DNA from: Eledone cirrhosa
Taxonomy: Eukaryota
Direction: 5' to 3'
Length of the DNA stretch: 64,000 bases
NCBI GenBank assembly: GCA_964016885.1
Contig: OZ024742.1
Span: 49,972,001-50,036,000, forward strand
Shown: one piece after another, positions 6,011 to 64,000 of the stretch
Layout: each line of letters begins with the position of its first letter
Position numbering within the stretch: position 1 is the first letter of the stretch
The notes under the pieces: model-generated
The model's input: only the letters and a program-made list of their open reading frames with translations
Database searches by the model: none
What the model was told of the DNA's origin: nothing
Translations under genes and position numbers: made by a program

Positions 6011-6694
6011 AAGAAAATCATATGCATAAACACACATGTATATATTTATGTGTGCGTATGCTTTTCTTTGTGTGCTTGTGTATGTAATTATCTGTCAGTA
6101 CATGGACGTTAATATGTGTACATTAGCACAATTGCTCTATGCAATTTTTATGAAGGACCAAGTGTTTCCGTTTGCTTAGAGCAACCGCCTGCTTGTCTGT
6201 CCTGTGTAAGGAATATGTTTCTAAAGCCAGAGAGTATGGGAAGATCCGAGTTCTCCTTGTAATTGTTGTTATCTGATGTTAGGTGTGATGGTGGAGTGGT
6301 CCGGTTACTTGAGATATTTGCATTGATTTTGTTAGTGGTTCTAATATTTTATCGAAGAGTTTGTTGTTCTTTTACTGTTTGAGATATATGGCATTGTTGT
6401 TGCTTCAACTATTGAAGACACTGCTACTGTTGTTGAAGCTGCCGCTGCTATCTCTGCTGATCTTACAGCTGTTGTTACTGATGATTCTTTTTGTAATAAT
6501 TCCTAGCAGCATCGGTACATTAGGTTCGAACCCCAATGTTTGTAAAATAAAATAAGTATAGATATTGGTAATTTTATTCCTCTCAGATTGTCTTCGAGAT
6601 ATTACATCTATCATTTGGGATTTATCCTATGATGCCTAACTAAAATAGCAAAACGCTTTGGATAGGAATTAACAAATATTGCTATTTGGGTAGG

Positions 6695-8092
6695 TGAGGT
6701 CCGTTTTGTATCTGGGTCCATTTTTTTAGGGGTATCCATTTTTTTTATTCGGGCGGTTTTTATTTGAGGGGAGAGTTTTTAATTTAGGGAACCCATTTTC
6801 GTATTTTGGTTTCCGTTTTTTATGGGGGGGGGGGGCTTATTTAGAGGGTCCGTTTTTTATTTGGGGTGGGTTTATTGAGGGGGATCTATTTTTTATGAGG
6901 GGAATTTATTTTTTATTCGGGGGCGTTTTTTACTTGGGGGATCCATTTTCTCATTTTTTTTTTGGGGGGGGGGGCACTTTTTTTATTGAGGGGTCCGTTT
7001 GTTATTTGGGGGATCTATTTTATTATTGAGGGAAGGACCTTATTTTGTTTGTGTGCGAGTGTGGGGGGAATTTTTAATTTGGGGGGATCCATTTTTTATT
7101 GGGGGGGCTCCGTTTTGTTATTTAGGGGGATACCATCTTTTTATTGGCGTGTCCGTTTTTTATGTAGCGGGTCCGTTTTTTTTTATTGTGGGGGTTTATT
7201 GGGGATATCTACTTTTTATCGGGGTGGTCCGTTTTCTATTTGGGGAGGGTGTTTTTTATTAGGAGTAAGCCATTTTTTATTGGGGGCCGTTTGTTATTTG
7301 CCCCACCAATAAAAAGCGCCCACTCCAATTAAAAAAGGCCCGACCCCAAATAAAAACGGACCTCTCCAATAAAAACTGGATCCCCCTATAAAAAATGGAT
7401 CCTTACCAAATAAAAAACGACGTCCAGTAAAAAGTGGATCCCCAAAATAAAAAAAAAACAGACACCCAATAAAAAACGGACCTCCAAAATAAAAACGAAC
7501 ACCCTAATAAAAAATGACAGCCCCCCCCCCCCCAATACAAAACGGAACCCCCAAATAAAATATGGATCCACTCAATAAAAATTGGATCCCTCTAAATAAA
7601 AATTCCCCCCGACCCAAATAAAAAAGGGACCCCGCAATAAAAAATGGAAGCACCCAATAAAAAGTGGAACCCCCAAATAAAAAGCGGTCCACCCAAATAA
7701 ATAAAAACGGACACACAATAAAAAATGAATCCGCCCAAATGGAAAATGGATCCCCCAATGAAAATGGATCCCCCACAAATAAAACAACGGATCCCTCAAA
7801 TAACCCCCCCTCCCCAAAAAATAAATGGACCCCCTGATAAAAAATGGATCCTCAAAATGAAAAACGAAGCCCCCAAATAAAAAATGGATCCCCCGAATAA
7901 AAATCGGAACCCCACCGCAAATTTGGTATTTTTTTCAAGAGGCATATTTCTACAAACCGATGACTCTAATTTTGTTTTGTGGGGATACGGGTCCGTTTTT
8001 TATTTGGTGGGGAGTGTTTTTTATTTGGCTGGATCCATTTTTTTATTTAGCCAGTCATTGGTTTGTAGAAATATGCCTCTTCAAATAATTCC
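6695..8092. repeat. ~20-bp minisatellite in two opposed blocks
   Basis: Units like GGATCCATTTTTTATTGGGG from ~6700-7300, reverse-complement units (AAAAATGGATCCCCCAAAT) 7301-7915, then a short T-rich block 7970-8050 flanked by a 40-bp inverted repeat (7925-7965 / 8053-8092). Confidence 0.85.
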
Positions 8093-9390: not shown

Positions 9391-10030
9391 ATATAATTAT
9401 AATTGAATATAAAAGAAAAACGAATACAGATATATACATATATGAGTTCAAATCGTAAGGGACCAGATTCGCTAAGGTGAAAAGAATACTAACTATAGAC
9501 AATTGGGTTTGCTTGTCTCAATTTAAGAAAATAACAAGAAAATAAATACAAACTGGAATTGTGGTAATTACCGATCACCTACAGTGGGTGATAAATTAGT
9601 ATCCTAGACACTTCTAAGTATATTAAGAAACTGAACAGTGTGCCATATATAATAATAATAGCGCACATGGCGTCCTAGCGTGTCTCACAAACCCACACGA
9701 CTAAAAATAGCAGCCAGGTTTATTAGACATTTGAAATAGTTCAACAAATTAACGGAGCCGAATATATCAAAGGTATATATTGAGTTTGTATTTATTTTCT
9801 TGATTTTTTCTTAAATTGGGACAAGCAAACCCAATTGACTATAGTTAGTATTCATTTCACCATAGCGAATCTGGTCCCTTACGATTTGAACTCATATATG
9901 TATATATCTGTGTTCGTTTTTCTTTTATATTCAATTATAATATACGGCTCGGAAATATCTCTTTCTGAGAGCTATTTTGTTGTAAGAGACTATTTTGAGT
10001 TCCTAACTCAATATATACCTTTGATATGTA
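9391..10030. mobile_element. Non-coding fold-back element in (TA)n with asymmetric tail
   Basis: Arms 9391-9554 and 9783-9943 are near-perfect reverse complements; only the right arm continues, into the bulged hairpin GCTC-GGAAA-TATCTC-TTTCT-GA-GAGC (9947-9972). Confidence 0.7.
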
Positions 10031-10239: not shown

Positions 10240-10676
10240 GTTATTCATTACAAACAAAAGAAAGCTACAATTTTAATTCCGCGAAATAGCCGGGGTTCGT
10301 CATCCGTTGCAAGACTTAGGCGATTACATTAGAAGTTGATTGCAGATTATGGCGAACACCAGCAGAGAATAGAAAATAGAGGACAGATTTGATTTGCCGT
10401 ATACCTGTCATTACATATAACTAATTCAGCTTTCAACTCCTGATGAAATCGCCTAAGTCTTGCATCACGAGGAGATGATGAAACTGGGTCATTGAATTGT
10501 GTATAGTGTTTTTACGAAATTAAAATTTTGAAGAAAGTTTCCAGTCCGACCTTGGGATATTACATCTAGGAAGGATGATTTGTATAACTTCGAGTGCTTT
10601 AATTCATTGCATCGTTGTTTACTAAGCGGAATCACCACTCCTACCCACTGGTAAACAACGTAACATAACCGGAATA
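10240..10676. mobile_element. PLE terminal-repeat fold-back relic with hammerhead
   Basis: 10270-10350 is a diverged inverted copy of 10425-10500; bounded by (TA)n on both sides; contains an HHR and a bulged hairpin at 10539-10557. Confidence 0.6.
10432..10498 (+). ncRNA. Type I hammerhead ribozyme (decayed)
   Basis: CTGATGA (10440-10446), stem II ATCGCCT/AGGAGAT, GAAAC-TGG-GTC, then ATTGAA pairing partly with upstream TTCAAC. Confidence 0.6.
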
Positions 10677-11469: not shown

Positions 11470-11631
11470 ACGAAGCAGTTGTGGTAAGGAATAGGATGGA
11501 CCATAACGCACCACACTACTCAATACTTAGGGTTGTAGAGTGGGTAATAGGAAAATGTATGACCCCGACGGCAGAGCTCAAGCCGTTTCGACGGCTATTT
11601 CTGGACAGAAATAGCCATCAAGGTCATACAT

Positions 11632-13645: not shown

Positions 13646-14184
<539 letters not shown>

Positions 14185-15116: not shown

Positions 15117-15483
15117 TCTATATAAATACTAGGTAAATCTTATGTGGGTGTTGATCGCGGATAAAATAGCTATCGTTTATTTATCTATTGTTTCTTCATA
15201 GGTACATTTGAAACTTATTGCCACGTTTAATTGATTTTTTTGTGTGGTTAATTATGGTGATTGGGAGGGGAAATACTGTATATTTTTTATCAAATGATTC
15301 TATGGACTTACTTTCTTATATATATATATATCCTGAAGTAAAAGTTAGGTTCAAATATCCAAGAGTAAAAACACTCAGTCCATAGAACGAGTTTAGTATA
15401 AATAATTACAACAGTGACATACATATGAACTCAAGTTTCGTTGGGTTCTGGGCCCCAATTCATTCAGCCTGTGATGACATGTA

Positions 15484-22355: not shown

Positions 22356-23446
22356 AATCCCATCAAAGACGTATTTTATTGTAGTTGATATACGTCAATC
22401 TCTTCTATTTTCAGGGAAATTCAAATTTTCTGGCATGTTTACATGTCTGTTCAATTTGGATTGCCTCGGAAACATAACCTTATTATGTAACAAGCTGTCT
22501 GACGAAGTCGCGACACTGGCACAGAGAACAAAGTGGCCACTGTCGCCATTGAAATATATATTCCAGCATTATTATTAAAAGACTTGAACATCTTAAACTA
22601 CTTCGCTTTTCCTTATTCTATACATATATATATATATATATATATAGAATGTAGGAGGTGAGTTTTATTGTAGCACAATAAAGCAATGCAAATATCGGAT
22701 AAGTAGCACTCTACAGTTTGTAGGACTGGCGAAAAACAAACTTAAACCCTAACTAATTTCTTTTAATATATTATATTATTACCATTAGAAAATATTTCGT
22801 AAACATATATACTTTTTGATGTTAGATATTTCCTTCCTTAAACATTCTTTTCTTCTTTCCTTCCGCGCTCATTTTAAACAAACTATTTACGTACACATAT
22901 TACATTACATAAAAACAAACTTAAACTCTAACTAATTTCTCTAAATTCATAACTCATTCATTCTTCTCCTTCTTTTCACATTATATCCTTAATATCATTA
23001 ATATTTTTATTTTAATAATATATATTAATAAATTATTTTCCTCGCACATATTATTAAACCCTTCAATATACAAACCTTAATTTAATACTATTCTTAATTC
23101 CTTTTCTTCATGCATAAACCTCATTAACTTTTAATTTCAAAATCTTTTAAATTATCTATTATCTTCCAACGGCTTTTTAATTTCTCTCTGTGAGGCAATA
23201 TATATTTTTTTCTCAGTTGCAAAGGCTATCTCTCTCTCTCTATCACCCATCTCTCCTCCTCTCTCATCCTTCCTTCTTATACTCCTGCCCCACCATCCTT
23301 TACTCTCATTTCTTCCTTTTCTTTACCTTTTCCAACCCCCCTTCACTTTTTCCCAATCTCATACATCAATCTTAATTTATTTTTCGTATGTTAATTTAAA
23401 ACTTCACTATTCACAAGTGTTCTTTAAACTTCATATCATGTCTCCC

Positions 23447-23503
23447 TATTTTATCTGATGAGAACGCATGATGATATTTGTTTTTGAAATGCGCATAATA
23501 TAA
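23447..23503 (+). ncRNA. Type I hammerhead ribozyme in 5' pseudo-LTR
   Basis: TATTTTAT-CTGATGA-GAAC..GTTTTT-GAAA-TGCGCA-TA^ATA; palindromic stem III; stem II shortened relative to the 3' copy. Confidence 0.8.
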
Positions 23504-23709
23504 CACTTGGAACTATTGTAACCATATTTTGATCTTATATTATTTATACTCCAGTCCTACAAACTGTAGAGTGCTACTTATCCGATATTTGCATTGCTTT
23601 ATGTGATACAATAAAACTCACCTCCTACATTAACTAGCTCCTTAACTGTTTGAGCGCTAACCCTCATAATCGGATACCTTTTGATGGTCTTTAATTCTTC
23701 TTCTACAAC

Positions 23710-26123
23710 ATGGATTATTACAACATAACAACTTCAACTAAAGACATTCCTATACCTGGTAAATCTGAATTCCCTAAACTTCTGATTGAAAAAACTGACT
23801 CCTTTGTGAGAAGGCTTAGATGGATAGCTTTTTTCCACGACCAGCCCCCAAAAGGAAATTTCTATACTAAGGAACATAACATTCTTGATCATTTATTTAA
23901 CTCTAGAAGTAATCCTCCTCTTCCAACAAAAACCTAGAGCAGTTCGAGGAAGAATTAACTAATATTATAAGATGTCTTAAATTCAAGAGAAACCCTTACA
24001 GAGGACAAGAGCACCTTGTAAATATCAGGAATACGATTTTAAACCTTAATTCCTCTAAAAATGTCTTAGTCCACTCCGACAAAACTAATAATTTATATGG
24101 CGTATCTAGGGATAACAATAATAACCTTATCCTTATGGAACTAAGGAAGAATTATCTTAAAATAACCATGACAATTTGGAATCTATAAACTTTGAAGCTT
24201 CTGAGATTATGTCTAAACTTAGCTTTGAAAAAAAGACCGAACCATTCCTCCCAAGAACTCCGAGGATAAATCTCAAGGATCATAAAAGTAATTTTCGAAC
24301 GGAACTGCCTGTTAGACTAATCGCCCCCTCTAAATCAGGTCTGGGGGTTGTTAGTAAAGCCATTTTGAATAGAATTATCCCAGAGGTTCGTTCTAATTGC
24401 TCTATTTCTAACTTAAATTTATGGTTTGGTACATCTGAAGTAATTGGCTGGTTCAACAACCTGAATAAGAAAAACAAACAAAAAATTATTCAATTTGATA
24501 TTGCCAGCTACTAATTCTTCTATTTCGCCTTCACTTCTCAACAACGCTCTATCTTTCGCATTTAAATATTCTGAGATCACCACAGATGAACTTTACATCA
24601 TTCTCACCGCAAGAAAAAAACTATCTTAGAATTCAACAATGAATACTGGACTAGAGCCGATACTTCCAACAACTTTGATATCACAATGAGTGCTTCTGAT
24701 TCATCGCAATTTACTGATTTGATTGGTATTTTTATTTTGAATTCTTTAAATCGGAAAATTCCTCAACTTCGCGGTGGAATTTATCGTGACGATGGACATT
24801 TTACTATCTTAAACTGCAACTTAGTTAACCTTAATATTATTAAGAACAATATACGTGATCTCTTTAAGAAACATAACCGTAAAATTGATTTTGATAACAA
24901 CGTCAAACTAGCTAACTTCTTGAATATATCCCTTAATCTTGACACTGGCCTATATTACCCTTACCATAAAAACAATGAGAATCTAAATTATGTTAATTTT
25001 GAAATCTAACCACCCCACTAACAATAAAAATGCTATAGACAGTAATATTGAAAAAAGAATCTCAAACCTATCCTCTAATAAAGATATCTTCGATGCTAAC
25101 GCCAATTGCTATAATAATGCGCTTTCTAAAAGCGGTTATCCTGATAAAATTAAATACAGTAAAGAAACCAATGCTAGAAGGTCTTACAGTAAAATAATTA
25201 ATTATGAACATTCCAATAACTTAAATAAAAGATCTAGATACAAACATATAATATGGTATAATGCTCCTTTCTCTATATCTATTAATAATAATATTCCTAA
25301 ACTATTCTTTAGGGCCTTAGATAAATGCTTCCCTCCCTCACACATCTATAGTAAAATCTTTAACAAACATACAATAACATGTTCTTATTCCACCACTTCC
25401 AGCATCTCTAACACTATCTCTAAACACAACAATAAAATATTAAATAATAAATCACATCCTTCCAACACTGAGCGTCATAATAATAGTAGTAGTACTCCCG
25501 ACGTCATTGTTAACTCTAGGCTAGATTCTGTAAACTTAAATGCGACGTCAAACGTAACTTCGTTGAATGTTCATAATACCAATCTAAATCAGGAAACTAT
25601 TATTCCTATCGCAAATAACTTCTCCGATCCAATTCCTTCTATAAATAACACTAGGTCACTTGTTAATAACTCTGTTAATTTCTCTAATCGTAATTGTAAT
25701 TGCCCTATTAAAACTAAATGTTCTCTTAATAACCATTGTCTTCATAAAAACTTAGTCTATGAATGTAAGGTTATAACTGATACCAATTCCTTTACCCATT
25801 TCGGTTCCACTTCCACTTCCTTCAAAGCTAGATTTTATAATCACAATTCGTCTTTTAAATACCAACTTAAAAGAACTAACACGGCACTCTCAGAACTCAT
25901 ATGGTCCTTGAAAAACAAAAATATTAACTATAACATCACTTGGAGGAAGCTTTGTTCTGCCTTTCCTTACCTGAATTCTTCCCTATCCAGAATATGTAAT
26001 CTCTGCCTAGCTGAGAAATTTACCATTATATCTAATTTCAATTCTATGATAAATAGACGCACGAATTTATTTTCTCTCTGCTTGCATAAATTCCACAGAA
26101 CATTCCATAAAGTATACCGCTAA
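23710..26123 (+). pseudogene. PLE RT-GIY-YIG polyprotein, frameshifted
   Basis: Joined ORFs: STKDIPIP..LIEKTDSFVRRLRW, LKDHK..PVRLIAPSKS, IQFDIASY, GIYRDDG, IIWYNAPFS, CNC..CSL..CL..LVY, FGST..FKARFYNH, CNLCLAEK, CLH. Confidence 0.92.
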
Positions 26124-27254
26124 TATACCTTACTAGTTTAAAATCCTTTTTCTCAAAGGCTTATATATGTTTTACAAATATACCCATCGTTCTACCTTAT
26201 TTCAATATTATATATTATATAATACAATTTACTCATTCTATATCATCCTCTTTATCATTTCCTTTTTTCCTTTTTTCTTTTTAATTTCTAACCTCTATTC
26301 TGTACCTTTTCTTCCCAACTACTTCTCAATTATTATTATTACTCACCACAACATTATCCATTCTTCCATCTTTCCTCATATCATTGGCCATAACAGTTAT
26401 TTTTTTAATACATTATAATATTACCATTAGAAGTCCTTCGTAAACATATACATTTTTTGACGTTAGATTTTTTTCTTCCTTAAATGTTTCATATCTCTTC
26501 TATCCTTTCATGCTCGTTTTAAACTACTACTTAATTTGACTTTTACGTATTACAATACATAAAAACAAACTTAAACCCTAACTAATTTCTTTTAATATAT
26601 TATATTATTACCATTAGAAAATATTTTGTAAACATATATACTTTTTGATGTTCGATATTTTCTTCCTTAAAAATTCTTATCTTCTTTCTTTCCGTGCTCA
26701 TTTTAAACAAACTATTTACGTACACATATTACATTACATAAAAACAAACTTAAACTCTAACTAATTCCTCTAAATTCATAACTCATTCATTCTCCTCCTT
26801 TTCACATTATATCCTTAATATCATTAATATTTTTATTTTAATAATACATATTAATAAATTATTTTCCTCGCACATATTATTATACGAACCTTAATTTAAT
26901 ACTATTCTTAATTCCTTTTTCTTCATGCATTAACCTCATTAACTTTTAATTTCAAAATCTTTTAAATTATCTATTATCTTCCAACGGCTTTTTAATTTCT
27001 CTCTGTGAGGCAATATATATATTTTTCTCAGTTGTAAAGGCTATCTTTCTCTATCACCCATCTCTCCTCCTCTCTCATCCTTCCTTCTTATACTCCTCCC
27101 CCAACATCCTTTACTCTCATTTCTTCCTCTTCCTTACCTTTTCCACCCCCTCCCTTTTTCCCAATCTCATACATCAATCTTAATTTATTTTTCATATGTT
27201 GATTTAAAACTTCACTATTCACAAGTGTTTTTTAAGCTTCACATCATGTCTCCC

Positions 27255-27325
27255 TATTTCATCTGATGAGAACGCAAATATCATCCCATGATTATATCTG
27301 GTTTTGAAATGCGCATAATAAAATA
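27255..27325 (+). ncRNA. Type I hammerhead ribozyme in 3' pseudo-LTR
   Basis: TATTTCAT-CTGATGA-GAAC-(long stem II)-GTTTT-GAAA-TGCGCA-TA^ATAAAATA; intact core, 7 of 8 stem I pairs. Confidence 0.88.
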
Positions 27326-27410
27326 CTCGGAACTCTTTTACCCATCTTTTACCCATCTTTTAGCCATGTAAATTATTTTTCTTTATAATATATGTATATA
27401 TATATATATC

Positions 27411-27621
27411 CAGGGAGTGTAACGCCGAGTTACTCTAGGTTCATACAGTTGAGCACTCGATGTTTAGGTTAATTCTGTCATTACTACCCCTGAGGTCCGC
27501 TGAGCCATTGATTACAGAGTTGGGCAAGATCGATACAGATCGAACCTTGAGCTGATCAATAGCGAAACGAGCGTCACCAACCAATAAATCTTAATGACTG
27601 AGTAACCATTTATCCTTGTTT

Positions 27622-30172: not shown

Positions 30173-30177
30173 TATAA

Positions 30178-31957
30178 TGGTAGAACACTGGAAGGTAATA
30201 TCCGTAGTGGTAGAGCACTCAGTCCATGGGACGAGTTAGGTAGAAGTGGTCACACAAAGTTAGTTCACGATACCGAGAACAATAGTTTCACCTTAGCGGA
30301 ACCTCAGCTTGTAATGAACATTGTTATACGGAACAGGTAGGACAACCGTACGAACGCGCAGGTGCAGAAACGAATACTTCACACATGCAATACTAAAATG
30401 CGTGCGAGAGATGTAAGGGAGATAACTGCGAAAGTCCGAAACATTTCTATTTGATACGAAAATTAGGATGTTGTTGTAATTCAATACGGAGCTTTCTAGT
30501 TACGTAATACGTGTTTCGAGACGTGTGGACAACGTGTGAAGAATTCATTTCTCGTGTTTAGGCAATCGCTATTGCATAATCTCTTTAGAATAATTATTCG
30601 TTCCTCAATACATAGTCCACACGACATATTACGTGTTAGATTCCCGGACGTCCACACGGGAATATACCGCGAAGATGGACTGACCTTATCGAGCCATAAA
30701 AGTGGTCACGACCTCTACCGGTTTATAAAAGACTTAGCTTCTACCTTAAATGAGTTAGGACTTAGTATAACAGTAGCTACCAACCTCTCTAGCGTAGATT
30801 TCTTAGACATTAATTTAGACCTTCGCACACACACCTACAAACCCTTCCATAAGCTGAACGAAAAACTCAATTACATTCACACGGACTCATGCCACACTCC
30901 CACTGTTTTTAGAAACATCGCAAATAATATCAGTACTAGAATCTCAAATCTCTCCCCTAATAAGGCTATCTCTGACAGGGTGGCACCCTACTATAACACG
31001 GCGTTAGCTAACAGCAGCTTCTCGCAACCTATCACTTACTCTCCCACTATCAACAACAGCAATAAGAAAAGAAAGCGTAACAATACACAAAATATCTGGT
31101 TCTCTCTTCCCTTCTCACTCAACGTTAAAAGCAATGTAGGCGAAACATTTCTAGCCCTCTTAGATAGACACTTTCCCATAGGTCATAAATACCACTTCAT
31201 CTTTAACCGACACAAAGTAAAACTAGGATACTCCTGCGCTAAGAACATGAAGGCACACATCACCAACAGCCCTAAGAGCAACACTCGTAAGCCCGAGGTT
31301 GGTTCCCTTCAACAGCAATGCAACACACCCGCTGTAGTTTCTGAAGCTGTGGTCACTTCCAACCGACCAAATCAACCACAGGAGGTCAAATCCTACATGG
31401 GTATGGGGGAGGGCCACTTTAAGGAACCCTTCCTGAACCACCAGTCGACCTTGAGGTACACGGACAGATGTTCATCCACGAAACTCGCGAGCCACGTATG
31501 GTCCCTCAATGACTCAGGTATAGACTACTCCATTCAATGGTAAGCCATCACTAAGTCAAAGCCATACGCAAGGGGAAATCTGTCGTGTATGTATTGATGA
31601 ACGCGTAAATATTCTAAAGAGATTATGCAATAGCGATTGCCTAAACAGAAGCAATGAATTCTTCACACGTTGTCCACACGTCTCGAAACACCTCTTACGT
31701 AACTACAAAGCTCCGGATTCAATTACAACAACATCCTAATTTTCTTATCAACTAGAAATTTTTCGAACTTTCGCAGTTATCTCCCTTACACCTCTCGCAC
31801 GCATTTTAGTATTGGCTGTGTGAAGTGATCGTTTCTGCGACAGTGCGTACGTACGATTCTCCTTCCTATTCCGTAAAACCATGTCCATTTGGAGGTGAGG
31901 ATCCGCTAAGGCGAAACAATCGTTGTCGGTATGGTGAACTAACTGTTTTGTAACCAC

Positions 31958-31962
<5 letters not shown>
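30178..31962 (+). mobile_element. 5'-truncated PLE with inverted terminal arm (old)
   Basis: Arms 30241-30630 and 31577-31962 are diverged reverse complements; left-only tail 30178-30240; TA flanks; HHR remnants at 31888-31933 (+) and 30270-30314 (-). Confidence 0.9.
30635..31739 (+). pseudogene. PLE RT C-terminal half + GIY-YIG, disrupted
   Basis: GIYREDG, VDFLDINLDL, IWFSLPFS, YMGMGEGHFK..NH, TKLASHVWSL, stop at 31541, then CIDER..LNRSNEFFTRCPH. The first ~33 codons of the ORF-track call are inverted arm sequence. Confidence 0.88.
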
Positions 31963-33208: not shown

Positions 33209-33447
33209 GTATATATATATATATTTATATATATATGTATATATATATGTATATATATATATATGCATAAATATATATGCATATATATATATAAAGATAT
33301 ATACATATATATACATGTAAAGTTATATTTAAAATTGTTGGGTTACAACTAGTAAATATTTATAACTGATATAAAAGCACTCGACAAATACTTGGAGTAT
33401 ATTTACAATATTAAATAAATGGAAAACTATATTTATAAAACCATATT

Positions 33448-33513
33448 TATTTCATTATATATATTTCGGGGATATCATATTAACAATATGCTATGCCTTC
33501 ATCAGACAAAATA
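33448..33513 (-). ncRNA. Type I hammerhead ribozyme, inverted arm copy
   Basis: Reverse complement of 37615-37680. Confidence 0.82.
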
Positions 33514-33876
33514 CAATATAAACAGTTTTATAGATAAATATATTCGACATACCGTAATAAACATCAACTTCATTTGAAGAGGTTCACTCTAGCAGTGAAA
33601 ATACAGAGAGAAAGAAAGAGAGAGAGAAAAGAGGGAAATAAGAAAGAAAGAAAGACGAAACGAAGAAAAGGAAGAAAAAGAAGAAAAAGAAGAAATGCAT
33701 GGGACAAAATAGAGAGATGGAAAAATAGATAAAGCGAAGAGCTTCATGTAAAGAGACCGAAAGAGATATATATATATATAGAGAGAGAGGAAATAGAGAT
33801 AGATACATATATAAATATAGATATAGAAAAATTAGGTAGTGGGAGGTCATTTTGAGTAAGTGTATCAATGATGCAT

Positions 33877-33911
<35 letters not shown>

Positions 33912-34601
33912 GCTCAAGTATTAATGTAAGGGAGATATAGAGAGATATAGAGAGATATAGAGAGAGAAAAATTTAAAAATAGCCAGACATATTCGAGGCG
34001 TAGAAAACCCTATGTTTTAATGTATTAGTATTTATAAAACTTACACTATATTGTAAATATCAGTATTCCTGAATGAAACAAGTATTCACAATGCGTGAAA
34101 ATTCATTATCTTATGTTTAGTTTTTTTAAAAAATTCATATGTCTATGTGAATCCAACTGATTCACTCCGCAAATTCAAAGTTACCGGAAAACATTCTCAA
34201 TGTGGTATAAACATTTGAGCGTATTATTATTCTTGCGATTACTCTACAAGATTATCTATCAAGCAGAAATAGAGAGCAGATTTCAATATACTAATCGAAA
34301 ATATATATTATATTATAAGCAGAGATAACAATAATAATGATAATAAGTAAAAATATATAAAAATATAAAAATATAGAATAGAAAACTAAAAAAGAATATT
34401 ACGAAAGAATATTACATAATAAAAATATTGCATATTAAAAATACTATGTTTTAAAATTATTACGTATTAAAACTTTACATATAAAAACTTTACATATAAA
34501 AATATTAAAAATAAAAATAAAATAAAATAAAAAATAAAAAATAAAAATATAAAAATATTATAGAATACTACAATACTAAAAGAATAAAAATAAAAATAAA
34601 A

Positions 34602-36098
34602 ATTGAGTGGTTTAGGCAAATTAAATATGACAATAATAATAGGTTTATTCAACTTGATATAGCTAACTATTATTCTTCTATTACCCCTAGTCTACTAAAT
34701 AAGGCACTAAATTACGCATTCAAACATACGGACCTAACTAGCAAAGAAATGCATATTATATTATCGGCTAGGAAAACTTTGATAGAATTTGATGACAAAT
34801 TATGGACCAGAGCAGATAGAGATAGCAATTTTGACATAACTATGGGATCTTCCGACTCAGCTCAAGTAACTGACCTTGTGGGCTTATTTTTAATCAATTC
34901 GCTACATAGGAAAATACCTGGTACTACCGGAGGTTTATATAGGGATGACATGCTTTTACTCATTAATAATAATAACCCTGAACTAAATAGAAAATGTAAA
35001 CAAATTACAAAATTTTTTAATTACTTTAACCTTAAAATAGAAATTGAGAACAACCATAGAATAGTCAATTTCCTAGATATAACATTAAATCTCAACACAT
35101 GTCTCCACTATCCTTTTCACAAGTTGAATGAAAACTTAAACTATGTCAACTTTAACTCTAACCACCCCAGATCTGTCAAAAACACTATAGTAAACTCAGT
35201 CCAAAAGCGTATCTCTAGGATCTCGTCGAATAGAAAGATTTTTGACGAAAAGGCCCAATACTATAATGATGCACTAGCTAGGGCAGGGTATGCTGATAAG
35301 ATTGTGTACATAGATAATGATAAACAAACTAAACAAAGTAACAACTTTTTTAATTATGGCAACAACATTAACAACTATAATAGAAAGCATTACAATAATT
35401 CCAAAGGACAAAAAAGAAATAGAACTAGGAACATAATTTGGTTTGCCCCCCCTTTCTCACTAAACATTAAAACCCACATCGCTAAATTATTTTTCAAAGC
35501 TCTTGATAATCGCTTCCCTAGAACACATAGGTACCACTCAATCTTCAATAGGCATACAATTAAATTAACCTATTCATCCACCAAAAATTTAGCACAAAAT
35601 ATTAATAGAATAAATAATAGGAACTTAAAAACTACTGATAATAGCATAAATAATATACAAGTTAACAAATGCAACTGTAGAGATAGATCTAAATGTCCGT
35701 TAAATAACAACTGCTTAGTTAAAAATATAGTATACAATTGTAATGTTAATACTGACTCTAATTCTTTTAACTACGTCGGTTCCACATCGACGGAATTTAA
35801 ACTTCGCTATAATAACCACAAGAATTCTTTCACAGATCCAAATAAAAAATCTTCAACGGCACTATCAGGTGTACTCTGGCAACTTAAGCTAGATAACGTT
35901 AGATATTCGACGGCTTGGAATATAGTCTCAAGAGGGATTCCTTTTAATTCATCCTCTGAGACATGTGACCTCTGCGCAGAGGAGATATTCTTTATACTAA
36001 AATCTAAAAATTCCCTTAACCTACGGACAAATTTATTCAGTTGTTGCAAACATAGATTAAACTCAACGTTTAAATATAAATTTAAATTTAAAATGTAG
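34602..36098 (+). CDS. PLE reverse transcriptase-GIY-YIG ORF, N-truncated but uninterrupted
   Basis: Frame is open 49 codons upstream of the tracked Met (IEWFRQ..FIQLDIANYYSSI); then ITMGSSDS, LYRDD, CNCR..CPL..CL..IVY, YVGST..FKLRYNNH, CDLCAEE, LNLR..CCKH. Confidence 0.92.
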   Translation: MEWFRQIKYDNNNRFIQLDIANYYSSITPSLLNKALNYAFKHTDLTSKEMHIILSARKTLIEFDDKLWTRADRDSNFDITMGSSDSAQVTDLVGLFLINSLHRKIPGTTGGLYRDDMLLLINNNNPELNRKCKQITKFFNYFNLKIEIENNHRIVNFLDITLNLNTCLHYPFHKLNENLNYVNFNSNHPRSVKNTIVNSVQKRISRISSNRKIFDEKAQYYNDALARAGYADKIVYIDNDKQTKQSNNFFNYGNNINNYNRKHYNNSKGQKRNRTRNIIWFAPPFSLNIKTHIAKLFFKALDNRFPRTHRYHSIFNRHTIKLTYSSTKNLAQNINRINNRNLKTTDNSINNIQVNKCNCRDRSKCPLNNNCLVKNIVYNCNVNTDSNSFNYVGSTSTEFKLRYNNHKNSFTDPNKKSSTALSGVLWQLKLDNVRYSTAWNIVSRGIPFNSSSETCDLCAEEIFFILKSKNSLNLRTNLFSCCKHRLNSTFKYKFKFKM

Positions 36099-37216
36099 TA
36101 TATTTAGTTTGATTTATATTTATATGAGAACTAGCCGATAAATCTTTTGATTCCTAAATCTTTGATTCCCTCTTTTTACTGTTTATTTTATTGTATTTAT
36201 TTTTATTGTATTTATTTTTTATTTTTATTTTTATCTAAACATTCCTCATGAAAAATTAAGCTACCCTAAAAGCCGATGCTCCAAATTTTATGAATTAACC
36301 TTACACTTGATAAACTTATATATTAAATATAGGAACATATGTAGACATTATTGGACATCATAACCTTTTTTTTTTTTTTTTTGCGATATTCCTTGCTAGA
36401 TGTGATTTGATAGATAATTTTTGGCTTTGTCTTGTAGTGAACTTGGCAATATATTGTCAATTAACCTTGAAGGGTTGTTCTTTGTGGTTTATTTTTTATT
36501 TTTATTTTTATTTTTATTTTTATTTTTATTTTTATTTTTATTTTTATTCTTTTAGTATTGTAGTATTCTATAATATTTTTATATTTTTATTTTTTATTTT
36601 TTATTTTATTTTATTTTTATTTTTAATATTTTTATATGTAAAGTTTTAATACGTAATAATTTTAAAACATAGTATTTTTAATATGCAATATTTTTATTAT
36701 GTAATATTCTTTCGTAATATTCTTTTTTAGTTTTCTATTCTATATTTTTATATTTTTATATATTTTTACTTATATTTTTACTTATTATCATTATTATTGT
36801 TATCTCTGCTTATAATATAATATATATTTTCGATTAGTATATTGAAATCTGCTCTCTATTTCTGCTTGATAGATAATCTTGTAGAGTAATCGCAAGAATA
36901 ATAATACGCTCAAATGTTTATACCACATTGAGAATGTTTTCCGGTAACTTTGAATTTGCGGAGTGAATCAGTTGGATTCACATAGACATATGAATTTTTT
37001 AAAAAAACTAAACATAAGATAATGAATTTTCACGCATTGTGAATACTTGTTTCATTCAGGAATACTGATATTTACAATATAGTGTAAGTTTTATAAATAC
37101 TAATACATTAAAACATAGGGTTTTCTACGCCTCGAATATGTCTGGCTATTTTTAAATTTTTCTCTCTCTATATCTCTCTATATCTCTCTATATCTCCCTT
37201 ACATTAATACTTGAGC

Positions 37217-37251
<35 letters not shown>

Positions 37252-37614
37252 ATGCATCATTGATACACTTACTCAAAATGACCTCCCACTACCTAATTTT
37301 TCTATATCTATATTTATATATGTATCTATCTCTATTTCCTCTCTCTCTATATATATATATATCTCTTTCGGTCTCTTTACATGAAGCTCTTCGCTTTATC
37401 TATTTTTCCATCTCTCTATTTTGTCCCATGCATTTCTTCTTTTTCTTCTTTTTCTTCCTTTTCTTCGTTTCGTCTTTCTTTCTTTCTTATTTCCCTTTTT
37501 TCTCTCTCTCTTTCTTTCTCTCTGTATTTTCACTGCTAGAGTGAACCTCTTCAAATGAAGTTGATGTTTATTACGGTATGTCGAATATATTTATCTATAA
37601 AACTGTTTATATTG

Positions 37615-37680
37615 TATTTTGTCTGATGAAGGCATAGCATATTGTTAATATGATATCCCCGAAATATATATAATGAAATA
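37615..37680 (+). ncRNA. Type I hammerhead ribozyme at PLE 3' end
   Basis: TATTTTGT-CTGATGA-AGG-C-ATAGCATATT-GTT-AATATGATAT-CCCC-GAAA-TATATA-TA^ATGAAATA; 8-bp stem I, extended stem II, palindromic stem III. Confidence 0.85.
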
Positions 37681-37720
37681 AATATGGTTTTATAAATATA
37701 GTTTTCCATTTATTTAATAT

Positions 37721-37818
<98 letters not shown>

Positions 37819-41775: not shown

Positions 41776-41779
<4 letters not shown>

Positions 41780-42437
41780 TGTTAGACTTGGGGAGGGTCA
41801 TATTTGTGTAATATTGCCAGAATTAATAACAGAACACACTCACTGTTTGGTTGGTTTTCGCTTTTCGCTTCTGTGTCTTTTATATCAGTAAACTAATTTA
41901 CTCGGTCCTCAATGTTGCTATTGACTGACCGACGGTCAAAAATAATACAGATACAATATAGACACAAACACATATATATAGTTTATCATAAATCTTTCGT
42001 TGCACATCTGCAACATCGTCAGTGGTGCTATTGTTTCCTCCCGTTGCATTGTATGTCTACGCCATTTTTTTTAATTTTTTTTTTAAACTAAATAAAAATG
42101 GCATAGACTTACAATGCAACGGGAGGAAACAATAGCACCACTGACGATGTTTCAGATGTGCAAGGACAGATTTATGATAAACTATATATATGTGTTTGTG
42201 TCTATATTGTATCTGTATTATTTTTGACCGTCGGTCAGTCAATGGCAACATTGAGGACCGAGTAAATTAGTTTACCGATATAAAAGACACAGAAGCGAAA
42301 AGCGAAAACCAAACAGTGAGTGTGTTCTGTTATTAATTCTGGCAATATTACACAAATATGACCCTCCCCAAGTATAACAATAATTGTTTCGACACACGAT
42401 TTCATATAAAAAACCTCGCAAAACTAATTCATCGCCG

Positions 42438-46989: not shown

Positions 46990-47119
46990 CGAAGGAAATG
47001 TGGTAAGGAACCAGGTGGACCATAACGCACCGGCTATTTAAATACCAGGATAAATTTTCATTTAGTCCAGAATTAGCCGTCGAAACGGCTTGAGCTCAGC
47101 TGTCGGGGTCTTACTGGTT

Positions 47120-47123
<4 letters not shown>
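46988..47123 (+). mobile_element. Short PLE relic: inverted tail joined to HHR 3' half
   Basis: 46988-47031 matches 11469-11512; 47032-47123 reads CGGCTATTT..AATTAGCCGTC-GAAAC-GGCTTGAGCTCAGCT-GTC-GGGGTC; TA flanks. Confidence 0.7.
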
Positions 47124-47183
<60 letters not shown>

Positions 47184-59203: not shown

Positions 59204-59521
59204 TTAATTGTAAGTTGTGATGTTGCTGTTCCACTCATATATTCTATTTAATTTTGGTTGTAATTCTTTTATGTTTATTGCCTCTGTAATTTGTCTAAAC
59301 ATTGCGTCTTTTCTGTGTGTAGATTCTATTTTTATTTCTATGTTCTCTAATTTACCCTTGTGTTCTATCTTAGCATGTTGATAGAGTACATATGATTCTT
59401 TATTATCTTGAAGGTCTCGCCAGTGTTCATTTATCCGTTCCCCTATACTACGAGCTGTCTCACCTATGTACACTATATTTTTGTCTCTACATTGTCCTTC
59501 AGTACATCTTATGCTATACAC
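59204..59521 (-). pseudogene. GIY-YIG endonuclease fragment from a different PLE clade
   Basis: VYSIRC..C..VYIGETARSIGERINEH..LYQH..EH..RQITEAINI..LNRIYEW. Confidence 0.85.
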
Positions 59522-59673
59522 TACATTTCTAGTTTTACAGTTAATATGGGGGCTTATTTTACAGGTTATACATTTCTTATCTATACATGAGGGTCTACAT
59601 TAACATCAATAGATAGTTATAGATGGTTAGATGGATCGATAGAGATATAAATAGACAGATATACACAAGCACG

Positions 59674-59829: not shown

Positions 59830-62545
59830 CAGCCTTTTTGGATTTGCTTTACGTTTTCGACTGTGATTTTGTGTTTCATTTGTTTTATTTGTGTGAGCTA
59901 ACCTGCCGCCTGGACTTGCAGACGGGTGGTTATTTTATTTTTACCCTTTTTGGGGGTAAAAACTACTTTGAAAAATGTGTATACCAACTTACAATAATGG
60001 ATACCATACATGAAAACACCACAGCCACGCCCCCGAGGGAAAGTGATAAAGAGGAACAAGTAACTCAACCTACTGAAGCTTCCCGTCTCACGCTTTCGCA
60101 TGCGAGTATGGAAGGCGATTTGGCGAACAATTGTAAAAACTTGGGTAATAACCCAAACAATGGAAACAGTAAATTGAAAGAATGTATAAATTACACTGAC
60201 ACCTACAACACCAACACAAATAACAAAGAAAATAACACAAACACACAAACACGAAAACAGCAGCAACAATGACAAAGAAAACAACATAAATGTGAACTCG
60301 AAACCCGAGAGAATGGGTGAAAACACCCCAAAACTGTACCGCAAACAACATCAATCAAAACGCAAACACCCAAGAAAATAAGCACAACAGCAACGAAACT
60401 CAAAAAAAGACCCACTACACGAATATCGTTTGTCCAAGTCGTTAAGGACACCGAAACTTCCACCCCAGTTGACTTCAGTAATGCAGCGGAATTGCTAAAA
60501 GAGGGGGGGGGGAAATAGGTGAGGTTTGGTGAAAACGGTGAATTCACCATAATCTCCCCTAAGGATATTAAAAGAGACACAAAAATTACACAGACACAGC
60601 TATACACATACTTCAACACAAACAATATAAAACTTGTAAACAAAATTGAACAAAACCCTTCTGTGCAAACCGAAGGGCCAAATTTCACGAGGGACACAGA
60701 GAAAAATTATTAAAACTCCGATAGACATTGTCTTTTAGTTCTATATAAATGTCTATCGGAGTTTTCATAATTTTTCTCTGTGTCCCATTCAAACATCCTA
60801 CTCTCAATACAGCCATGTTGGCGGCGAAAGGGAAGAAAAAGAAAAGGCACCTATCTCTTTACGTCCCGGGGACCGGGCTGCACAACTTCCATAGGGGTGA
60901 AGGAGGGGTTGTTGGGTGGGAGGGACATCAGAGTGTGGTGGGGTTTGGGTGTTTGGTGTGGTGTGGGTGTCTGCGGTAGGGGTGGGGAAATGTTTCAAGA
61001 GGACCCGGTTCATTGGTTTTACACAGGGGGGGGGGGACCCAAGTCCTCAGGAAAATTGTCTTTTAGTTCTATATAAATTTTCCTGAGGACTTGGGCCCCC
61101 CTCCTGTGTAAAACCAATGAACCGCGTCCTCTTGAAACATTTCCCCACCCCTACCGCAGACAACCACACCCCACCAAACACCCCAACCCCACCACACTCT
61201 GATGTCCCCCCCACCCAACAACCCCTCCTTCACCCCTATGGAAGTTGTTCAGCCCTGTCCCCGGGACGTAAGGTGATAGGTGCCTTTTCTTTTTCTTCCC
61301 CTTCGCCGCCAACATGGCTGTATTGAGAGTAAGATGTTTGAATGCGCGTGGCCTGAGCTCACCTTGGAAGCAGGCAAAACTTCTAAATGACCCCAGGTAG
61401 CGCAGTATAAATGACATGGCTATTTGCGAGTCCAAGGTCAGCACGAACGCCAGCTAGTCCCCACCTTTAACGACTTTGAGATCTATGCATCTCTCTGTCA
61501 GCCAGGAGGTGGGGGTGGGGTTGTCGTTCTGCTTCAAAAAACACCTGGGCCTCGCAACGGAGACGGTGCACTTGGACCCGGTGGGTCGGCTGGTGGTACT
61601 AGACGTTGGCAGTGGTGAAGGTGGAGACTTTATGCTGGTCGCCTTTTGGGGCAGTGAGGCCGGACTTCATCTATCGTCTGGAGACTTTTAGTGGCGGACT
61701 GGAATGGTATCCTAGATGCACGTTGGGACTATATAGGAGCATGTCTTGACAGAGACGGGTGTAACAGCCTCAAACGGTTAATCGGCCGATTTGACCTGGC
61801 CGATAGATATCGACAAAATTTTCCGACTGCGCCAACCTGGACTTGGATTAACCGTAGCGGATCATCTAGGTCGTACCTAGATAGGGTCCTAGTTAGAAAT
61901 AAATATAGGGACCTACTAAGTTGTCCAGAGATGCGCATGGTTGGCTATTCAGATCACAAATTATTGACCTGCTTAGTCAACCTTGATAGAAAGCATAGAC
62001 AGGGACCCGGTTACAGGAAGCTGAACTTGTCCTTACCGGCAAGTAAAGCTTACAGGGATCGGATTAGTGCTTTAGTTAAGAGACGGTTGACGGGGGCTAT
62101 CGTCAACAGCAGGTGGTGGGGATCTCTCAAGAGAGAGATTAGAGTAGTCTCGATAGGTTTTAGTAAGGAATTAGCCTCAGATAGGAATAGGAAGGAAAGG
62201 GAGTTGGTAGATAGAGTAGAAGAAGCGATTAGAAGCGGCAACGTAGCCAGAGTGCTAGTGTCAAGAACGGCCTTAAACCAGTTTTTCGACGCGAAAGACC
62301 GATTTCAGCTGCTGAAATAGGGGACGTGCTGAGCCAATGTGGCACACGAAAATCCCCGGGTCTCGATGGTCTTCAATACGAACTTTATGTAGCGATGCCG
62401 GACTTTTTCTCCGATCTCCTCGAGGCGGTTTACTGCAACTGGCAACAGAACGGGAGAATTTCTTGTTCTATGACCAAGGGCGTAGTCTCGCTAGTGAGGA
62501 AGGACGAGGACAAGGGGGATGAAATAAGTAATAACCAGGATCCCA
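59830..62545 (+). mobile_element. Tx1/L1-like LINE, rearranged (ORF1 remnants, APE endonuclease, RT start)
   Basis: ORF2 start 61314 MAVLRVRCLNARGL; DWNG, TWTW, SYLDRV, SDH, GPGYRKLN, KSPGLDGL. Confidence 0.85.
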
Positions 62546-64000
62546 GCAGAGGTCAACATATGGTGGATCCTACGCTGCATCCTGAAGAAGGATGAGGACA
62601 CCCTCCTATCTGTAGACAGGAAAGACCGGCATAACTGGTTTGGAACCTGCATCGATGTTCTGGTACAAATGAGACCAGAGAGAGTTGAGAAAATACCGGA
62701 CAGGATCGTCTTTGAGGTAGATGTCATCTCCACTTTAGTGGAGGGGAAAAGACCTCAGTGCCATAAGTGTGGGAAAACCATACACTTAAAGGCCTTTTGC
62801 CCTCTCTTAAACAAACCGAGGACAAACAAGGTGTTATTACCAACACCAAAACCCCAACATCAACACTCCAAACCAAACACAACACAAACACCTGCAACAT
62901 CCACTCACACACCACCACAGAACAGAGACAACCACACACACAAAATCCCACTGAAAAACCCTCCATTGCCTCTTACCACCCTGTCAAATACTTCCACAAA
63001 CACCTGCACAAACACTCTACCACACAACATACCGCTTCCATCTACCCCTGATTCAGAAGTCACAGACACCGGAGCCTCTACATCTAAAAGTGAGAATGAA
63101 GAGGAACCCCAAAATCCAAAAAACAAAAAAAGACACACAAAAGACACAAAAACATCTACAGAAAACACGCACACACCCAACCACACCATAAACACACCGC
63201 GACAAACGACAAACACACCAACAACACAATCACCAGCAACACAACCAAACACTTCACCAACAAAACAAACACCCACACCACCACAATCACAAACCCCAAC
63301 CACAAAAAGAAAACTACAAACAGAAACATTACACATAAAAAACAAAACACAATACACATACATAAAAACAAAGAACTGGTGGAAACTGTCCAAAGCGACC
63401 CCTCAATACAAACGGAAGGGAAAACCTTCCCCACCAACGACCCACCTCCAAACCTCAAACTTATCAGGGTAACAACCCTACAGTATGAAACTTTAAAAGA
63501 GAACTTCCCACATGATGTGGGCCACCCTTGCCAAAAGCCCCTTAACCGTGTCCTGCTAAAAGAATTACGTCTCTCCCCAAACTCTACCAATCTGGACATG
63601 GAGATCGAACAACCCGACCTCCAAGAAACGAAAAGGTAAGTTTTCATGCCTTTTCTCTCCTTCTTCACCAACATGTCCTGGAAACAGGGCTAGCTTTTAA
63701 ATGATCTCAGGTCAAATTGTATAGATGTGATAGCCATCACTGAGTCCAGGATTCACGAAAAGCAGCAGCTAACCCCCATATTCGATGATTTCGAGTTCTA
63801 CGCATCTCTCTCTCAGCCAGGAGGTGGAGGGGGAGTTGCTGTTCTGTTTCGAAAAAAACTTGGATCTCAAAATACAGACGATTCACTTGTACTCGGAGGG
63901 CAGCCTGGTGGTCCTGGACGTGAATGTTAGTGAAGGTGGAGCTTTCAGACTGGTGGGCGTATATGCCCCGACTGGGACATCGCGACCAGGGTTCTTCAAG
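62545..64000 (+). mobile_element. Second Tx1/L1-like LINE: ORF1 with zinc knuckle and start of endonuclease
   Basis: CHKCGKTIHLKAFC knuckle, T/P-rich region, NFPHDVG..NRVLLK (homologous to 61079-61140), IAITESR..GGGVAVLF; continues past the window. Confidence 0.85.

Follow-up and report, generated by a model that had tools for sequence, protein, structure and literature searches.

How a Penelope-like element (PLE) comes to rest in a genome as inverted pseudo-LTRs (pLTRs) with a tail on one side only has, to our knowledge, been an open question since PLEs were discovered. The 64,000-nucleotide stretch of the Eledone cirrhosa genome analysed here (the window) raises that question directly: a first-pass annotation had seen the same bulged hairpin at the insertion boundaries of several PLE families, and had read it as a cis-acting RNA element that docks the reverse transcriptase (RT) and sets an internal priming site. 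All nine hairpin sequences on which that reading was built are found at the coordinates it gave, and our analysis confirms that the motif is real and more extensive than was described. It follows the consensus NCTC-[inner stem-loop]-TN-GAGN'-RCT and occurs in two copies per unit (HP1 and HP2) in Hydra-clade PLEs, the order from 5' to 3' being hammerhead, HP1, HP2 and ATG. HP1 lies 33-61 nt past the hammerhead cut, and HP2 lies 55-91 nt beyond HP1, immediately ahead of the ATG; the spacer between them measures 55-81 nt in other hosts versus 89-91 nt in families A and B. The insert between the halves of the outer stem runs from 6 to ~60 nt, with paired, switching bases. The second copy in the window, at 23637-23658, had been overlooked.

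Three retroelements, all of them decayed or truncated, lie in the window: A at 33.3-37.7 kb, B at 22.6-27.4 kb and C at 30.2-32.0 kb. Both hairpins can be followed in element B. An inverted long-arm stub (22648..22729, minus strand) copies 23551-23631; its last base, 23631, stands 5 nt short of HP2 at 23637, and (TA)n follows. The direct 5' pLTR (22732..23543, plus strand) is 91% identical to 26561-27350, and a minimal type I hammerhead motif with a palindromic stem III matches our descriptor at 23448..23505 (plus strand), its predicted cut after 23497 falling 50 nt before HP1. HP1 (23548..23575, plus strand) consists of ACTC, a 4-bp inner stem, a 7-nt loop, a TA bulge, GAGT and GCT, and HP2 (23637..23658, plus strand) of GCTC, one C-G pair with a 6-nt loop, a TTT bulge, GAGC and GCT. 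Short arms of family B end at a TA ~5 nt upstream of HP1, and long arms ~4-7 nt upstream of HP2. There follow the decayed ORF, in pieces that appear to encode a Hydra-clade RT with a C-terminal endonuclease (23710..26123, plus strand), and the short-arm 3' pLTR (26561..27380, plus strand, end approximate). A further descriptor match with a 56-nt insert lies in a tail beside (TA)n at 27453..27520 (minus strand, 3' coordinate approximate), and its 5' partner may be there by chance.

Element A shows the same junctions from the other side. Its inverted long arm (33314..34603, minus strand) carries a hammerhead, with a predicted cut after 33456, and HP1 at 33398-33376, and has (TA)n at the place where HP2 stands in full units. 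The 5'-truncated Hydra-clade ORF (34545..36098, plus strand) is open for 517 aa, and the 3' short arm (36528..37725, plus strand; hammerhead with a predicted cut after 37672) ends ~5 nt ahead of the HP1 position. Full family A units, with 67 pattern matches in the Eledone genome, continue beyond the long junction with TA, 4 nt, GCTC-CA-ATAC-TG-TT-GAGC-GCT and, ~20 nt on, the ATG. Element C (30177..31962) comprises an inverted long arm that holds HP1 (30236-30214, with a 1-nt bulge), a partial ORF (30500-31543) and a short arm that stops 4 nt before the position of HP1. Family D is represented by an HP1 at 11518..11541 (minus strand), with Hydra endonuclease remnants in other copies, and by a short arm at 47065-47124; these had been taken for partners and are separate insertions of one family, 35 kb apart. 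In a search for ORF 5' ends in the genome DNA examined, full units came to light only in families A and B, and no HP2 was located in C and D.

As members of one motif, six of the nine original hairpins stand. Those at 23548, 33376, 30214 and 11518 come from families with many copies, and a second copy preserves the fold both at 15373..15392 (minus strand), which is by sequence the HP1 of a C-related family, and at 9947..9975 (plus strand), a GCTC/GAGC HP1 in a fold-back with a short arm that terminates at 9396. For the other three, T-A variants, membership of the motif is unconfirmed. The hairpin at 13659..13684 (minus strand) has an outer TTTC/GAAA stem without the CTC/GAG core, and occupies the position relative to the junction that the motif does, also in two further copies; that at 10539 contains an A-C mismatch, and that at 6581 is single-copy in the DNA examined. 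The 13659 hairpin bounds a 371-bp fold-back flanked by (TA)n runs (13686-14056), which contains a tRNA-Ser(GGA)-like gene (13792-13865) and is possibly a tRNA-derived element mobilised by a PLE.

Comparison with shuffled sequence gives a clear excess in the window, where a strict descriptor makes 5 matches versus 0.75 (maximum 4) over 60 shuffles. In 664 kb it makes 35 matches versus 5-13 over 6 shuffles; 17 of these 35 belong to a single tandem array, and the remaining 18 versus 5-13 are a modest excess. The same descriptor finds just four of the nine hairpins originally noted. Folding energies are weak: the proposed fold is the minimum-energy fold in four of the nine, with z-scores from -2.5 to +0.3, and it is not the minimum-energy fold for HP2 of the window. 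The case for the motif is covariation and position, not stability.

The covariation comes from other hosts. A 40-protein alignment led to 78 loci in metagenomes, where the best 80 of 465 stretches were taken, and to 12 in MAG assemblies, all presumably animal host DNA; the Hydra PLEs in bacterial MAG or symbiont assemblies (L199-L210) are most likely animal host contamination. Of 105 hammerhead-bearing arms in this set, 71 contain the hairpin. Among the other 34, 12 enter (TA)n first, 12 reach a contig end and 10 lack the hairpin. By eye these 10 are short arms that pass into other sequence, copies that have been rearranged, a single spurious call and a single different family. Clustering at 80% identity left a non-redundant set of 45 HP1 and 28 HP2. 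The outer stem is GCTC/GAGC in 69 of these 73, and the bulge is TT in 51, TC in 14 and TA in 8; in the Eledone genome the HP1 outer stem is mostly ACTC/GAGT. In loci L202 and L205, GCAC/GTGC replaces GCTC/GAGC, a two-sided change within an otherwise invariant core. Since the CTC/GAG core is nearly invariant, the outer stem shows sequence conservation more than covariation.

For the inner stems, a MAFFT alignment of the 73 hairpins misplaced the 5' halves, and pairs were therefore counted with only the outer stem, the bulge and the 3' flank as anchors. Inner pair 1 of HP1 is Watson-Crick in 45 of 45 (28 T-A, 17 C-G); pair 2 has 37 Watson-Crick and 1 G-U of 43, and pair 3 has 27 and 5 of 35. None of 5000 partner shuffles, run on a row set that still included one mis-parsed row, later corrected, matched the observed counts for pairs 1-3. 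On a 36-row RT tree pair 1 makes five two-sided switches and shows no one-sided state; independent-pairs tests agree in direction and, with only 3 pairs on starred branches, are too small for significance (p 0.25). In HP1, G-U outnumbers A-C by 9 to 1 (p 0.03), which favours the sense strand, and in HP2 (2 G-U, 4 A-C) there is no strand signal. HP2 usually has one inner pair only (Watson-Crick in 26/28), and its outermost pair is mismatched in 4/28. A TA ends 4-7 nt upstream of 41 of 45 HP1 and 21 of 28 HP2, against a linker background of ~26% (25-27%), and the ATG follows HP2 at 15-42 nt in 24 of 28 units.

Position was assessed in the Eledone genome with queries taken only from upstream of the hairpin, so that ends were not preselected; the best 40 candidates per search were used, and the arm end is the last matching base, TA overlap counted. 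In family A (30 of 43 matches), the end lies at -5 or -8 of HP1 in 15 arms and 81-88 nt further on (-3 to -10 of HP2) in 14, and one arm reads through. Family B (30 of 41) has 18 short arms ending at -4 to -11 of HP1, 9 long arms ending 78-85 nt further on, and 3 other ends (-19, +34 and that of the unit in the window). In family C (39 of 40) there are 19 short arms (-4 to -7), one arm at -21 and 19 long arms, whose offsets are inflated by a reference that contains (TA)n. By eye the junction reads TA, 4-5 nt, then the hairpin, HP1 for a short arm and HP2 for a long one; the earlier claim that the short arm stops just before the hairpin thus holds, refined to a TA ~4-5 nt upstream.

In the DNA examined, arms lying head to head pair a long with a short one in 53 of 64 cases (duplicates removed by flank and span only). 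There are no short-short pairs, a combination excluded from the subset of 30 family A loci that came via a long-arm query, and one long-long pair; the remaining 10 have a read-through unit (4) or an odd end (6). Either arm can carry the ORF, and arms longer than ~55 nt are copied across the hammerhead cut site. In the other hosts 26 alignments stop inside the full-unit reference, 16 of them within -5..0 of HP1 (10) or HP2 (6); the 10 that stop elsewhere, by appearance mostly cross-family matches, are kept in the count. Since arms end before either HP1 or HP2, the known PLE tail is, in these families, the HP1-HP2 spacer. In head-to-head pairs at C3:355069492/355075636, C11:21132443/21136670 and C13:31044619/31050845 of G000, both arms continue beyond HP2 for kilobases in the upstream direction. 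Such pairs suggest cDNAs of more than one unit's length, and thus multimeric or circular templates.

Judged by sequence, elements A-C are Hydra-clade Penelope-like retrotransposons. ORF A aligns with 39 homologs across the RT and endonuclease, as a single ORF with a C-terminal GIY-YIG-type endonuclease, and Argonauta is the only named animal species among the top three protein matches. The available text of Craig et al. 2021 (PMC8557442) defines the clade by a CxCX5C linker, CxxC and CxH, without CCHH, and ORFs A and B show precisely this combination. A full family A copy (L217) has RWR and DKT, its homologs RWK or RWR and DKT, and the hammerhead motif and (TA)n targets of Hydra elements are both present. 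Size departs from the pattern: the family A unit has a period of 4011 bp in a tandem trio in the Eledone genome, and that text gives, as a tendency, less than 3 kb for Hydra elements in general. Pfam returned no match for ORFs A-C, so the endonuclease call rests on alignment and motifs, as does the Hydra assignment, the 36-row RT tree holding no reference-clade or outgroup sequences. The families had been called unrelated. Their shared Hydra motifs and the 32-45% identity of ORFs A, B and C to each other rule this out; they are diverged members of one clade, and the motif is therefore inherited, not convergent.

Nor did a general PLE motif survive, since the CTC/GAG core is missing from the tail of a fold-back that carries a different GIY-YIG type. 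By-eye inspection of 61 rows from a fold-back scan of 664 kb gave ~20 tail families, about half with the CTC/GAG motif, about three with a TTTC-type hairpin at the same place and the others with neither. The motif is a feature of Hydra elements and is not shown for all PLEs. Rfam has no match over 23548-23658 among the 150 matches listed, of 157, and among the matches listed for the window only repeat-driven miRNA matches and one tRNA; no relative was found in viral contigs. Several observations concern the neighbours of these elements. A GIY-YIG domain (Pfam PF01541) of a different PLE type lies at 59204-59596 (minus strand), with near-identical copies elsewhere on the contig, one of them in the fold-back with the motif-less tail, and the tail family at 41776-42383 looks the same as that of this type. 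Broken ORFs at 61658-62595 (plus strand), the first piece without a Pfam match, resemble a non-LTR retrotransposon endonuclease and RT start; degenerate 19-21-bp tandem repeats in two opposite orientations fill 6871-7913; and PLE insertions of different families nest within each other's flanking (TA)n, forming clusters (e.g. L235, L246, L273). Finally, ~33 tandem units of 610-625 bp (G000:C1:150104258-150124487 and 150084488-150086139, minus strand; L089, L091-L093) each contain a perfect motif hairpin and have no Hydra ORF match, no hammerhead match and no clear HP2. A small array of these units ends in (TA)n 77 nt past the hairpin, and the array is possibly a non-autonomous, retrozyme-like partner of Hydra elements.

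We believe it likely, from the arrangement of the sequences, that the hairpins dock the RT and fix internal priming sites on the sense RNA, one for each target strand. A hairpin that marks an end is absent from the arm that ends there, and so cannot act in the product and would act on the template. The variable insert and the G-U bias would make that template the sense RNA, the fixed TA suggests short primer-template pairing with a cut (TA)n target, and two coupled starts suggest two active sites. Consider, then, an element about to insert. Its endonuclease would cut both strands of the (TA)n target, and two RT active sites, probably those of a dimer, would each bind one hairpin. Each freed target end would pair with the UA just upstream of its hairpin, both RTs would travel the same way along the RNA, and their cDNAs would be joined at the variable far ends, leaving inverted pLTRs with a tail on one side only. 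With the hairpins placed 3' of the ORF, as this scheme requires, and the hammerhead site copied through, the RNA copied would be either a tandem transcript left uncleaved or a circle; given the tandem trio in the Eledone genome, DNA alone cannot choose between these two. The original proposal, a cis element by which an internal priming site is set, is thus supported in part: it is the best reading, and is strengthened by a second copy at the other boundary. A more ambitious version, which we offer tentatively and would not bet on, is programmed twin priming, in which a dimeric, telomerase-related RT would hold both tandem CTC/GAG bulged hairpins of a single RNA circularised by the hammerhead, initiate the two cDNAs simultaneously on the two strands of the cut (TA)n and roll round the circle.

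The same junctions would be produced if the hairpins directed RNA cleavage or 3'-end formation 4-5 nt upstream and the RT then used the ordinary 3' ends of RNAs, in the manner of LINE-type target-primed reverse transcription, and the hairpin would likewise stay outside the product. Such a scheme would, however, have to sort two differently cut RNAs to give one short and one long arm in 53 of 64 pairs, and in the available text of PMC11167929 the anole PLE primes internally on unprocessed RNA; we regard it as unlikely. It is more doubtful still that the motif works in DNA, as an endonuclease site in donor DNA or a cDNA hairpin, with the tail left by resolution of an intermediate. Craig et al. 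2021 do ascribe PLE tails to endonuclease resolution of an intermediate (PMC8557442, available text), the nearly invariant core could be a sequence-specific site, the Drosophila Penelope tail is reported to be needed for endonuclease recognition of plasmids (PMC11167929, available text), and strand polarity is mild in HP1 and absent in HP2. A duplex palindrome does not, however, account for inserts of 6 to ~60 nt whose bases switch while staying paired; on the sense strand G-U is commoner than A-C, and the marking hairpin is missing from the arm that it delimits.

We think it very improbable that antisense RNA serves as the template, with the hairpins as stop signals, or template boundaries, for self-primed synthesis. 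Hairpins do serve as RT stops in telomerase, and an antisense self-priming model was proposed for head-to-head repeats by Arkhipova et al. 2013 (PMC3846280, available text). Against this, the precise ends are those fused to (TA)n with TA overlap, as expected of primed ends, the G-U bias indicates the sense strand, and the anole assay primes on sense RNA (PMC11167929, available text). We give least credence of all to some other role, such as translation control or a promoter ahead of the ATG, with junctions simply tracking a nearby TA. The position of HP2, 15-42 nt ahead of the ATG in 24/28 units, would suit such a role. TA is common, however, occurring in ~26% of 4-nt linker windows, and yet ends fall at two hairpin-tied sites only, to which they stay tied although the spacer varies over 55-91 nt.

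PLE RTs are the closest relatives of telomerase, in whose RNA template-positioning and boundary elements place a protein-bound stem beside a short alignment region and are thought to set the RT register. Those elements govern the point at which copying ends and serve repeat addition, whereas the Hydra hairpins, located 3' of the start, would define the point at which it begins. A telomerase boundary stem is 5' of the template; here the hairpins are 3' of the copied region on the sense strand, and the analogy drawn in the first-pass annotation is a resemblance only. LINE-1 twin priming also uses two target ends that prime on element RNA, giving an inverted 5' part. In L1 a second priming event happens only now and then, at internal sites that vary, whereas in Hydra elements both starts are fixed, the copies overlap and the paired form is the rule.

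The closest experimental parallel is PAc, a Poseidon element of Anolis carolinensis, which initiates internally at two sites in vitro (Frangieh et al. 2024, PMC11167929). According to the available text, its genomic tail is delimited by two sites within the RNA at which the RT starts, downstream of a hammerhead whose cleavage is dispensable; the target is AT-rich, both strands are cut and extended, a dimer is predicted and a stem-loop lies at the start site. Hydra elements share the two discrete 3' ends that bound a tail. PAc differs in having one AC-rich stem-loop in one family, a start inside the ORF and a 30-40 nt tail, none of which is seen here: Hydra starts would lie in the 5' UTR at a spacing of 55-91 nt, with one copy of a clade-wide hairpin following each. 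The available PAc text describes no conserved or duplicated motif and no rule of one short and one long arm. In the PAc RNA as printed there, a hairpin can be seen by eye shortly after the downstream start, which we mention as a lead only.

For the Hydra clade itself, the available text of Craig et al. 2021 (PMC8557442) shares with our elements the protein motifs, the hammerhead, (TA)n targeting and inverted pLTRs with a tail, and neither that text nor the available supplement mentions the word "hairpin". In the Hydra consensus sequences available from that work, the motif, unannotated, is by eye clear in three of six, partial in one and not seen in two, and both copies are visible in Hydra-1_Ajap. 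We found no description of it in the full text of openly accessible papers, nor in the available text of PMC4209133, PMC3846280, PMC7229834, PMC5680766 and bioRxiv 10.64898/2026.07.22.740005. As regards novelty, then, the motif appears undescribed, as the first-pass annotation supposed, while internal initiation at two tail-bounding sites, at a stem-loop, has already been shown (PMC11167929, available text).

Overall, Hydra-clade PLEs carry an RNA motif that is duplicated and found across the clade, and from its two copies both insertion ends can be predicted with a precision of a few bases. It provides a simple marker for annotating the ends of Hydra elements and their non-autonomous partners, and the twin hairpin is a candidate minimal RNA handle for RNA-templated DNA insertion. 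If programmed twin priming should prove true, any RNA fitted with the twin hairpin, a portable "start here" signal of ~100 nt, could be written into DNA on both strands, and the PLE tail, the inverted pLTRs and the role of the ribozyme would be explained together.
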